From Octopus vulgaris (Eukaryota), in assembly GCA_951406725.2 (NCBI GenBank), contig OX597828.1, forward strand, positions 46,562,001-46,626,000: a stretch of DNA of 64,000 nt. Direction: 5' to 3'. The position numbers and the translations under genes are program-made. Below are positions 10,327 to 55,300 of this stretch, one piece after another. Positions within the stretch are counted from its first letter, which is position 1. Each line of letters opens with the position of its first letter. Below the pieces are notes generated by a model. That model was not told the origin of the DNA. It saw only the letters and a program-made list of their open reading frames with translations, and did no database searches.

Positions 10327-10591
10327 ATCACCGTGACCGACCAGACTATCAGATGTTGTTACACATCGCTGGTCACAATGCGCTTTGCATTGTTTTAGCC
10401 TTCAAGTGACGCCACCTCGCTGGCTAAGCGAGCAGGCCAACAGAAGAAAGAGTGAGAGAAAGTTGTGGCGAAAGAGTACATCAGGGATCGCCACCACCCC
10501 CTGCCGGAGCCTCGTGGAGCTTCTGGGAATCGAAACCGCGATCCTACAACCGCGAGTCCGCTGCCCTAACCACTGGGCCATTGCGTCTCCA
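10327..10591 (-). mobile_element. SINE family B (tail type 2)
   Basis: tRNA-like head and the same tail as 7418-7698. Confidence 0.85.
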
Positions 10592-10609
10592 TATATATGT
10601 ATATATGTA

Positions 10610-10677
<68 letters not shown>

Positions 10678-10684
<7 letters not shown>

Positions 10685-11019
10685 TCAATATATATATATA
10701 ATTAATCAATATAGGGTGGCAAAAAAAATTTTGTAGAATTCTTTTGCCACCAGCGGCCTAGTGGGAAAAAAATTAAATAGTCATAAACCATTTTTAAGTT
10801 CAACATCACAATCAAGGAACGGCCATAATAGGCCATTCACCCACTAGAAATAACAGCCAAAAAGCTTTAACCGCAAAATAACGTCAATTCCGTAAACCAG
10901 GAGAAAATTAAATGTTTTTTAATTTTCTCCTGGTTTACGGAATTGACGTTATTTTGCGGTTAAAGCTTTTGGCTGTTATTTCTAGTGGGTGAATGGCCTA
11001 TTATGGCCGTTCCTTGATT

Positions 11020-11024
<5 letters not shown>
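10678..11024. mobile_element. Truncated, fold-back (inverted) insertion of the 491-bp retrozyme-like element
   Basis: 10699-10912 matches the first ~215 bp of the unit at 51301. 10805-11024 is a ~108-bp-arm palindrome. (TA)n flanks. Confidence 0.92.
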
Positions 11025-11084
<60 letters not shown>

Positions 11085-16799: not shown

Positions 16800-17193
16800 C
16801 TAGCAGTATCGCCCGGCGTTGCTCGGGTTTGTAAGGGAAATAACTATATAAGCATTTTTAGAGAGTTATAGCCAAAAAATAGCAAAAAAATGCATTAAAA
16901 ATGGAAAAAAAATTATGGTAAATTTTTTTTAAATCGTTGACTCATCGTAGACATTTTTAGAGAGTTACTTCCCTTATATAATAGCGAAAAAATGCATTAA
17001 AATTGAAAAAACTGATGGTAATTTTTTTTTAAATCGTAGACTCATCGTAGACGCGTGCTAATACCCAGAAGGGCTCGATATGAATCACGACTATAAGATA
17101 CCCGGTTTTGGTTAAACTGCACCGCAAAATGTGGGAGTAGTTAGGAATCTAAATCGTAGGAGACAGACACAACTTCACTTTTATATATAAAGA
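16800..17193 (-). mobile_element. Complete non-autonomous Helitron (394 bp)
   Basis: Inserted between A and T, no TSD. 5' TC..., 3' CCCGAGCAACGCCGGG hairpin then CTAG. Internal imperfect tandem repeat. Confidence 0.9.
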
Positions 17194-50359: not shown

Positions 50360-50770
50360 TCTTTTACTCTTTTACTTGTTTCAGTCATTTGACTGCGGCC
50401 ATGCTGGAGCACCGCCTTTAATCGAGCAACTCGACCCCGAGACTTATTCTTTTTTTTTGTAAGCCCAGTACTTATTTTATCGGTCTCTTTTGCCGAACCG
50501 CTAAGTAACGGGGACATAAACACACCAGCATCGGTTGTCAAGCAATGCTAGGGGGACAAATACAGACACACAAACACACACACGCATATATATATATATA
50601 CATATATACGACGGGCTTCTTTCAGTTTCCGTCTACCAAATCCACTCACAAGGCTTTGGTCGGCCCGAGGCTATAGTAGAAGACACTTGCCCAAGGTGCC
50701 ACGCAGTGGGACTGAACCCGGAACCATGTGGTTGGTAAACAAGCTACTTACCACACAGCCACTCCTGCGC
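50358..50770 (-). mobile_element. Full-length SINE family A
   Basis: Complete head and tail. Confidence 0.92.
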
Positions 50771-51037
50771 ATATATATATATATATATATAATTAATCAA
50801 TATAGGGTGGCAAAATAAAAATTTGTAGAATTCTTTTGCCACCAGCGGCCTAGTGGGAAAAAATTAAATAGTCATAAACCAGTTTTAAGTTCAACATCAC
50901 AATCAAGGAACGGCCATAATAGGCCATTCACCCACTAGAAATAACAGCCAAAAGCTTTAACCGCAAAATAACGTCAATTCCGTAAACCAGGAGAAAATTA
51001 AAAAACCAGGAGAAAATTAAAAAACATTTACCCTGTA

Positions 51038-51144
51038 ATTTCTTAGACGATGCACCGTTTCATCTACTGTTTAATGGAAAACTAACCTGATTAAATTAAA
51101 TCAAGCCAATCTACCATAGGCCCTTAGATTCATCAGTAAGAAAT
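51038..51144 (-). ncRNA. Type-I hammerhead ribozyme (unit 1)
   Basis: AUUUCUUA-CUGAUGA-AUCUA-[long hairpin]-UAGAU-GAAAC-GGUGCAUC-GUC^UAAGAAAU. 8-bp stem I. Cleavage predicted between 51046 and 51045. Confidence 0.92.
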
Positions 51145-51528
51145 AGCCAAGCCGGAACAGATATTTTTCACGAGGCATTCTCGTTGCTACCTCGTCAATA
51201 TCTGACCTAAAATTTTCAAATCGTCGCACTCGCGCCAAATTTATCGGCAGCAAATAAATATAAGCCGCCGATTCCATTACGGAATTAACCAGAAAATTCA
51301 TAATTAATCAATATAGGGTGGCAAAAAAAAATTTTGTAGAATTCTTTTGCCACCAGCGGCCTAGTGGGAAAAAATTAAATAGTCATAAACCATTTTAAGT
51401 TCAACATCACAATCAAGGAACGGCCATAATAGGCCATTCACCCACTAGAAATAACAGCCAAAAGCTTTAACCGCAAAATAACGTCAATTCCGTAAACCAG
51501 GAGAAAATTAAAAAACATTTACCCTGTA

Positions 51529-51635
51529 ATTTCTTAGACGATGCACCGTTTCATCTACTGTTTAATGGAAAACTAACCTGATTAAATTAAATCAAGCCAA
51601 TCTACCATAGGCCCTTAGATTCATCAGTAAGAAAT
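51529..51635 (-). ncRNA. Type-I hammerhead ribozyme (unit 2)
   Basis: Identical to unit 1. Confidence 0.92.
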
Positions 51636-52020
51636 AGCCAAGCCGGAACAGATATTTTTCACGAGGCATTCTCGTTGCTACCTCGTCAATATCTGACCTA
51701 AAATTTTCAAATCGTCGCACTCGCGCCAAATTTATCGGCAGCAAATAAATATAAGCCGCCGATTCCATTACGGAATTAACCAGAAAATTCATAATTAATC
51801 AATATAGGGTGGCAAAAAAAAATTTTGTAGAATTCTTTTGCCACCAGCGGCCTAGTGGGAAAAAATTAAATAGTCATAAACCATTTTTAAGTTCAACATC
51901 ACAATCAAGGAACGGCCATAATAGGCCATTCACCCACTAGAAATAACAGCCAAAAGCTTTAACCGCAAAATAACGTCAATTCCGTAAACCAGGAGAAAAT
52001 TAAAAAACATTTACCCTGTA

Positions 52021-52127
52021 ATTTCTTAGACGATGCACCGTTTCATCTACTGTTTAATGGAAAACTAACCTGATTAAATTAAATCAAGCCAATCTACCAT
52101 AGGCCCTTAGATTCATCAGTAAGAAAT
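52021..52127 (-). ncRNA. Type-I hammerhead ribozyme (unit 3)
   Basis: Identical to unit 1. Confidence 0.92.
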
Positions 52128-52246
52128 AGCCAAGCCGGAACAGATATTTTTCACGAGGCATTCTCGTTGCTACCTCGTCAATATCTGACCTAAAATTTTC
52201 AAATCGTCGCACTCGCGCCAAATTTATCGGCAGCAAATAAATGATT

Positions 52247-52291
<45 letters not shown>

Positions 52292-54812: not shown

Positions 54813-55300
54813 CTGAAATAATAGAGAAGATATGATACTGCTGTGGGCTCGCCCTAGGCAGGAAGTTAGAAACTTTTTTGCCCATAAAAATACATGGACA
54901 CTAAGTAAGGCATGTGTAAAATTTGAATGAAATTGGTTGTGTAGTTCTCAAGTTTTAGGGATTCATAGTGGAGAAGATATGATATTGCTATGGGCTCGCT
55001 CTAGGCAAGAGGTTGAACATTTGTTTTGCCCATGAAACTACATGGACCCTAAGTAAGGCATGTGTAAAATTTGAATGAAATTGGTTATGTAGTTCTCAGG
55101 TTTTAGGGATTCATAGTGGAAAAGATATGATATTGCTGTGGGCTCGCCCTGGGCAAAAAGTTAAAACTTTTTTTGCCCATGACACTCCCTGGACCCTAAG
55201 TAAGGCATTTATACAATTTGAATAAAATTGGTTATGTAGTTCTCAAGTTTTAGAGATTCACACAGACAGACAGACTGACACACACACATTCTCAGTTTTA
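54813..55300 (-). repeat. ~147-bp tandem repeat (x3), probably internal to a non-autonomous Helitron; another unit at ~54030-54215
   Basis: GAAGATATGAT..GCCCTAGGCA..GGACCCTAAGTAAGGCA units at 54826, 54973 and 55121, ending in (CAGA)n-CACACATTCTCAGTTTTATATA like the other Helitron 5' ends. Confidence 0.65.

Follow-up and report, generated by a model that had tools for sequence, protein, structure and literature searches.

Two-armed insertion of a 491-nt hammerhead retrozyme in Octopus vulgaris, probably primed at both DNA ends on one RNA

How can a direct and an inverted partial copy of the same repeat come to lie back to back between two (TA)n runs? The question is raised by positions 10678-11024 of the window, i.e., the whole 64,000-nt stretch of Octopus vulgaris DNA analyzed here. 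The initial annotation, made from the sequence of the window, saw in this locus a fold-back copy of the element that forms a tandem array at 50790-52251, primed at two fixed sites and ending just before a ribozyme cut. We consider it, with a probability of roughly three in four, to be a two-armed insertion of a 491-nt hammerhead retrozyme, likely made by a Penelope-type reverse transcriptase (RT)/endonuclease that acted in trans and used both DNA ends as primers on a single RNA.

The short insertion, the array and their ribozyme

Positions in the repeat are given relative to a reference unit (u), taken from the window at 51301-51791 (491 nt). The sequence 10699-11024 consists wholly of this repeat and is flanked on both sides by (TA)n (Table 1). 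No ORF coding for RT and GIY-YIG domains was found in the short insertion, which is unit sequence throughout between its (TA)n runs. The motif TAATTAATCAATA is found at 10678, 10699, 50790, 51301 and 51792 of the window, and the insertion does share its priming point with the array. The inverted 10-mer TGATTGTGAT ends both loci, at 11015-11024 and 52242-52251, and 10909-11024 is indeed an inverted copy, corresponding to u221..106. The two arms of the short insertion differ in extent and in one homopolymer, u213-221 being present in arm B and missing from arm A. Arm A ends 24 nt before the predicted cut at u236|237, the distance originally given (~24 nt). Arm B also ends before the cut, at a distance of 15 nt rather than the 16 nt first reported, or 19 nt if the microhomology is assigned to the other arm. 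The repeated start is real, but its description as an aborted ~14-nt first attempt is only one reading: as this was the sole full repeat among 117 A starts inspected, either RT re-initiation or later slippage may have produced it.

Table 1. Features of the two insertions in the window (strand given where assigned; u, position in the reference unit).
Feature	Position	Strand	Remark
(TA)n target, left of short insertion	10591..10698		
Repeated start	10678..10698	+	u1-15, then TATATA; arm begins again at u1
Arm A, from start site A	10699..10912	+	cDNA-sense copy of u1-212; 98% to unit
Inversion junction	10909..10912		4-nt microhomology (TAAA)
Arm B, from start site B	10909..11024	-	cDNA-sense copy of u106-221, opposite strand; 100% to unit
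(AT)n target, right of short insertion	11023..11067		
(TA)n target, left of array	50772..50789		
Array arm A, from site A	50790..52242	+	2.9 tandem units
Type I hammerhead ribozyme, unit 1	51039..51143	-	predicted cut 51045|51046
Type I hammerhead ribozyme, unit 2	51530..51634	-	predicted cut 51536|51537
Type I hammerhead ribozyme, unit 3	52022..52126	-	predicted cut 52028|52029
Array arm B, from start site B	52242..52251	-	10 nt, u106-115
(AT)n target, right of array	52250..52286		

The array had been set apart as a case that needed a circular or multimeric template. A circular template is likely for arrays, but the array has the same two-armed structure, with a second arm of 10 nt, and is not a different kind of insertion. 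Its first unit shows two base differences from the others and carries a 19-nt duplication at 50984-51025 (u195-213), where A arms of the short class described below usually end; the duplication may be the record of a pause or template switch. In both cases, the (TA)n run that received the insertion is preceded by a short stretch of higher GC content (10420-10590 and 50612-50771), which looks like a dispersed, SINE-like repeat. The window contains two further tandem repeats, at 54824-55260 (148 nt, 3 copies) and 16853-17052 (100 nt, 2 copies).

On the minus strand each unit contains the parts of a type I hammerhead, namely stem I (TTTCTTA/TAAGAAA), CUGAUGA, a 68-nt stem II domain, GAAA, stem III and GUC, which place the predicted cut at u236|237 in each unit. 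Of 182 arm sequences, 181 retain the core CUGANGA, in which N varies freely, and likewise 181 retain GAAA; the cut-site base H17 was C or A only. A search of Rfam at the gathering score returned no match, and the minimum-energy fold of the ribozyme region is an alternative pairing. With an intact type I core in every unit, and as dispersed tandem repeats of 491-nt units (up to ~11 per arm) that lack LTR, PBS and PPT, these elements have the hallmarks of retrozymes.

Two start sites, one of each per insertion

Searching the 2.8-Gb genome with the unit yielded 195 matches from 40 of 1,075 candidates, many of which begin at query position 1 or 105. Exact starts consisting of (TA)n and site A numbered 710 genome-wide and those of (TA)n and site B 441, with no match genome-wide for the reversed control patterns; the ribozyme pattern had 2,355 exact matches. 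Unit variants include frequent homopolymer indels. Two sets of loci were analyzed. The score-ranked set comprises 38 loci and is biased to long ones. The anchored set, limited to contigs C1-C2 and to loci with an exact start motif at one end, comprised 140 loci, 90 from the first 100 A starts listed and 50 from the first 100 B starts listed; removal of six duplicates left 134, the window's own copies being excluded. The pairs of arms analyzed number 92, two of which have long fillers and were included manually.

The far end could be typed in 90 of the 134 anchored loci and was always the other site, never the same one, which bears out the two fixed priming sites proposed at the outset. Among A-anchored loci (n = 86), 56 had B as their far end, none had A and 8 had another position, while 17 showed no arm and 5 were cut off; among B-anchored loci (n = 48), the corresponding numbers were 34 A, no B, 3, 5 and 6. 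The loci without a typed far end thus comprise 22 without an arm, 11 with another start and 11 cut off. Three of the 17 A-anchored loci scored as lacking an arm (L110, L166 and L174) carry B arms of 8 to 11 nt, which the 10-nt arm B of the array resembles. An inverted truncated copy framing the insertion, as in Penelope-type elements, was therefore found in 90/134 anchored loci, and an inversion junction in 33/38 score-ranked loci. The two fixed RT start sites, u1 and u106, are spaced 105 nt apart and give a one-sided tail. Most ends adjoin (TA)n in the score-ranked set, for which (TA)n was no selection criterion; inside such runs, a target-site duplication would blend into the repeat.

At both sites the start overlaps the (TA)n run by 2 nt, followed by 3 nt and then AATCAA. 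The RNA is predicted to be single-stranded at both, with a hairpin 12-16 nt away, and u1-16 and u118-139 are the least variable parts of the unit after the ribozyme core (0.6% versus 2-4%). On account of these shared properties, priming seems to depend on RNA structure or on the binding of a protein rather than on base pairing.

Two sister retrozyme families with 70-75% identity adjoin copies of the main family (L150:466-1060 and L187:2600-3200). Their hammerheads have CUGACGA or CUGAUGA, stem II domains of 55-59 nt and compensatory stems, and they show similar two-armed anatomy with starts at corresponding sites. A third, more distant sister family was seen at L122:2760-3025.

The same data bear on whether the palindrome could be an assembly or chimeric-read artefact, which we hold to be exceedingly improbable. 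No read or contig was found across the 10678-11024 inversion in the raw runs X22 and X23 (0 and 2 reads) or in the X1 and X2 contigs. Since these contigs break at repeats and the reads are so few, the junction is neither supported nor contradicted by them. An artefact is at odds with a one-of-each rule common to 90 loci with differing junctions, fillers and flanks, and with the differences in extent and homopolymer between the arms of the short insertion. Moreover, the X1 and X2 contigs contain the right flank, (AT)n immediately preceding site B, and A arms that are joined, at other positions, to an inverted arm.

The two arms were copied from the RNA independently of each other. In 20 of the 92 pairs each arm includes sequence that the other lacks, 8 of these pairs having no common sequence at all, and the longer arm can be either one, B reaching further than A in 42/92. 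"Fold-back" thus describes the shape of the locus but not the mechanism. Self-priming, as proposed for Penelope inversions (PMC3846280), would have a single cDNA fold back and copy itself, site B being where the copy is cut or stops. Near-perfect palindromic junctions in L050, L112, L127 and L161 are compatible with this, as is the finding that, among the 35 pairs without an arm across the cut, 21 have their two ends no more than 10 nt apart. Against it speak the presence of u213-221 in arm B but not in arm A of the short insertion, the variable identity of the longer arm, and the pairs in which neither arm contains the other; the disjoint ones contradict it as a general rule. We therefore favor two primings and regard self-priming as very improbable.

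Both arms of an insertion share one source haplotype. Arms of the same locus differ by 0.41%, compared with 4.2% between loci (74 loci), and in 49 multi-copy loci only 19/5,469 calls were discordant at 26 common sites, versus 40% between loci. Rare variants were fixed throughout both arms in 28 cases, partial in 10 and single-copy in 143; 2 were limited to one arm, in which several copies carried them, and a further 7 of this kind came from two loci that contain two insertions. The 91 loci typed fell into 29 haplotypes. The partner arm at the same locus was strictly closest in only 23/74 cases, tied in 33 and beaten by another in 18, so that we limit the claim to a common source haplotype rather than a single molecule.

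Arm ends and the predicted cut

The initial annotation proposed that breakpoints random with respect to the cleavage site would speak against its reading. Run without the window loci, this analysis revealed a clear excess of ends just before the cut. First-pass stops at u200-238 accounted for 25/85 A arms, 4.9 times the hazard elsewhere (p = 5e-9), and for 23/89 B arms, 4.1 times the hazard elsewhere (p = 9e-7). This bin was set after the data had been seen, its place having been predicted by the annotation; the best other 37-nt window reached 1.3x, compared with 3.5x at u200-238. At u235-247, no stops occurred with 126 arms at risk. On later passes, stops at u200-238 accounted for 7/72 (Fisher p = 0.002 versus first pass), with hazards of 1.3x and 1.0x. 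Both arms stopped together in this interval in 17/92 pairs and singly in 4 and 5 (odds ratio 56, p = 9e-11). The claim that the element stops just before the cut thus holds for the short insertion and for this class of pairs, but they are a minority: of the arms that get as far as the cut, the majority continue past it (60/85 A arms, 66/89 B arms).

In the 17 short-class pairs, the arms end at median positions u217 (A) and u226 (B), i.e., 19 and 10 nt before the cut and not at it; B ends past A in 14 of 16 untied pairs (p = 0.004), as it does at 10678-11024. Ends exactly at u236 were found in 3/316 arms (L042, L138 and L178; p = 0.03). The short-class junctions show microhomology (7), filler (8) or blunt joining (2), lie in differing flanks and represent 9 haplotypes. 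This diversity, together with a similar identity to the unit (94.1 versus 94.3%, p = 0.87), speaks against a subfamily or age effect. Local microhomology was also rejected as the cause of the pile-up: inverted 5-mer and 6-mer partners at u200-238 (1.28 and 0.33) are near the unit mean (0.87 and 0.29) and below those at u5-43. A second, weaker cluster was noticed, in which both arms end at u147-157 (L075, L131, L170, L186, L196 and L207). Fillers of reiterated AAAAATTT-like units occur at the junctions of L126, L144, L153, L158 and L182, and we take them to resemble polymerase theta end joining.

Short pairs also co-end away from the cut, 10/18 ending within 10 nt of each other where 3.9 are expected, as if both arms had run off one broken RNA. 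When at least one arm crosses the cut, the phase of the two ends is only weakly coupled (6/57 within 10 nt, p = 0.02; 2/33 in the long set, p = 0.48), so that such arms were probably synthesized one after the other, or trimmed back before they were joined. Collision of two RTs on one circle was rejected on the same grounds, phase coupling being weak or absent. As some pairs are uncoupled (662/213 in L113, 202/798 in L159 and 712/236 in L138), there is also little support for two enzymes moving together round one circle.

From these positions of the arm ends we infer, for the short class, the linear self-cleaved monomer that had been suggested as template. The pile-up at u200-236 could be explained differently if all templates were circles or multimers on which, after the same twin priming, the leading RT stalled at the folded ribozyme with the trailing RT behind it. 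Such a stall would account for the excess on the first pass only, the coupling of the arms, the position of B past A and the fact that most ends fall short of u236. It would also agree with in vitro data for the Anolis Poseidon element PAc, for which the main text reports that cleavage is dispensable and that no reads terminate at the cut (PMC11167929). Yet stops cease abruptly at u234-236 although the ribozyme extends to u334, and the hazard within it (u241-320) is at or below background. Stronger hairpins that are met earlier (u17-53) cause no comparable pile-up, and some B arms end inside stem I (u229-234), in addition to the three arms that end exactly at u236. We consider stalling an improbable cause of the pile-up, and cleaved linear RNA the better explanation.

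For arms that cross the cut, the length was unchanged in 325 of 327 crossings, which argues that the template was continuous across it; template jumping between linear monomers was rejected because scars are absent at the cut. The templates of arrays are likely circular. A homogeneous multimer would also fit the scar-free crossings and the single haplotype per locus, and one may imagine that, after the same A/B priming, long arms were templated by linear, uncleaved multimers of parent arrays, or lengthened later by unequal exchange, with the two arms possibly using two RNAs of one source. Four A arms that stop at u221-236 on the second pass point in this direction, and local amplification of tandem repeats is favored in a recent preprint on retrozymes, judging from its main text (bioRxiv 10.64898/2026.07.22.740005). 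However, multimers with ribozyme-made 5' ends predict an excess at the cut on later passes, which the hazards given above do not show. The co-ending of short pairs away from the cut is what a single molecule would give. In 15/33 long loci both arms are longer than one unit, with variants common across the inversion, and none of the 17 short-class junctions was recognized as a copied parent junction. Multimers are thus unlikely, and we retain circles as the templates of long arms.

Known systems and a proposed mechanism

In L1 twin priming, two primings on one RNA produce an inverted 5' part joined by microhomology; the second priming takes place at variable internal sites by base pairing, affects a minority of insertions and yields non-overlapping arms. 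In contrast, second priming takes place here at a fixed site and as a rule, with both arms copying the same sequence.

The elements are a real new retrozyme family with Penelope-type insertion anatomy. Metazoan non-LTR retrozymes have been defined as non-coding, low-GC tandem repeats with a type I hammerhead per unit, for which linear and circular RNAs were demonstrated and tandem cDNA synthesis from circles by a Penelope or LINE RT was proposed (PMC7229834). Later work tied them to Penelope pLTRs by phylogeny, leaned to local amplification and left the mechanism open (bioRxiv 10.64898/2026.07.22.740005). The family shares these features, including the proposed circular RNA intermediates and Penelope-like helpers, but its unit is longer (491 nt versus ~170-400 nt) and has a 68-nt stem II domain. 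An inverted second arm, fixed starts and mapping of ends are not described in the main texts of these reports.

Penelope-like elements (PLEs) are described as having an inverted truncated copy, a one-sided tail of 30-40 bp, a bias for (TA)n targets and microhomology junctions (PMC3846280; bioRxiv 2021.04.23.441226), all of which have counterparts here. Unlike them, the insertions are putatively without an ORF, the "tail" measures 105 nt, and both arms can extend to many units. The closest parallel is Anolis Poseidon PAc, which in vitro uses two internal RT starts that bound the tail, with little primer homology and an AT-rich target, cuts and extends both strands and is predicted to act as a dimer (PMC11167929). 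In that study neither start showed a strand preference, whereas here each insertion uses each start once and the cut is marked by a class of arm ends. For Penelope elements, both the two start sites and the inverted ends are thus already known, and the parts of the mechanism are known separately; the joint genomic record is sharper here than that found in print. In the mostly open-access literature consulted, the main texts contain no description of one-of-each pairing, of two-armed arrays made by rolling reverse transcription or of retrozyme ends mapped to the cut; the cycle models in the supplements of PMC7229834 (Fig. S9) and PMC11167929 (Fig. S2) may bear on these points.

An abundant Penelope-like family with an intact 781-aa reading frame, RT followed by GIY-YIG, inserts into (TA)n in the same genome. 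This young family, represented at L221:930-6172, has a CxxxxCxxC motif before the nuclease and a first start 16 nt from a hairpin. Its two starts, with 188 and 639 exact matches, are separated by 40 nt, and all six convergent pairs within 12 kb, paired from coordinates among the 127 ends listed, had one of each. It has no sequence in common with the unit and no canonical hammerhead, so we treat it as an example of the same mechanism in this genome and do not assign it as the helper. Neither the unit nor the sister units matched elements in 32 GIY-YIG loci, drawn from the 148 listed of 6,136 candidates, a sample in which a partner element may be missed; a match at L211 is a separate retrozyme fragment on (TA)n.

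The two start sites, their one-of-each pairing, the single haplotype per insertion, the pile-up of ends before the cut and its scar-free crossing are established by these loci. In the mechanism that we propose, minus-strand transcripts of the putatively non-coding retrozyme would self-cleave at u236|237, and some would be ligated to circles. A (TA)n run would be opened by a putative helper, a Penelope-type RT/endonuclease. Its two RT active sites, which probably belong to a dimer, would be placed at A and B, each at a distance in the RNA of ~12-16 nt from a hairpin and of 5 nt from UUGAUU. On cleaved linear RNA both RTs would run off near the 5' end, B ahead and A behind, leaving loci such as 10678-11024. 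On a circle, one or both arms could circulate up to ~11 times, generating arrays such as 50790-52251. The two free cDNA 3' ends would be trimmed and joined via microhomology or filler synthesis, giving the inversion.

A wider proposition, for and against which we see an even balance, is that Penelope-type retrotransposition is obligate twin priming by a dimeric RT/endonuclease, which binds one RNA at two fixed positions and elongates the DNA on both sides of a cut, and that, on a ribozyme-made circle, two-armed rolling-circle reverse transcription writes inverted arrays in one event. The tandem and inverted ends of PLEs, the role of their hammerhead and the insertion of animal retrozymes are each treated as open questions in the main texts of published work. 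One testable answer is offered here, namely one-of-each priming at two sites on one RNA, with ribozyme cleavage leaving its mark in the genome and circles giving rise to arrays, and the 491-nt unit provides a substrate for an in vitro test. If this answer is true, arm ends in the genome are a tally of linear versus circular templates, and the mobilization of retrozymes by Penelope-type elements would have mechanistic as well as phylogenetic support.
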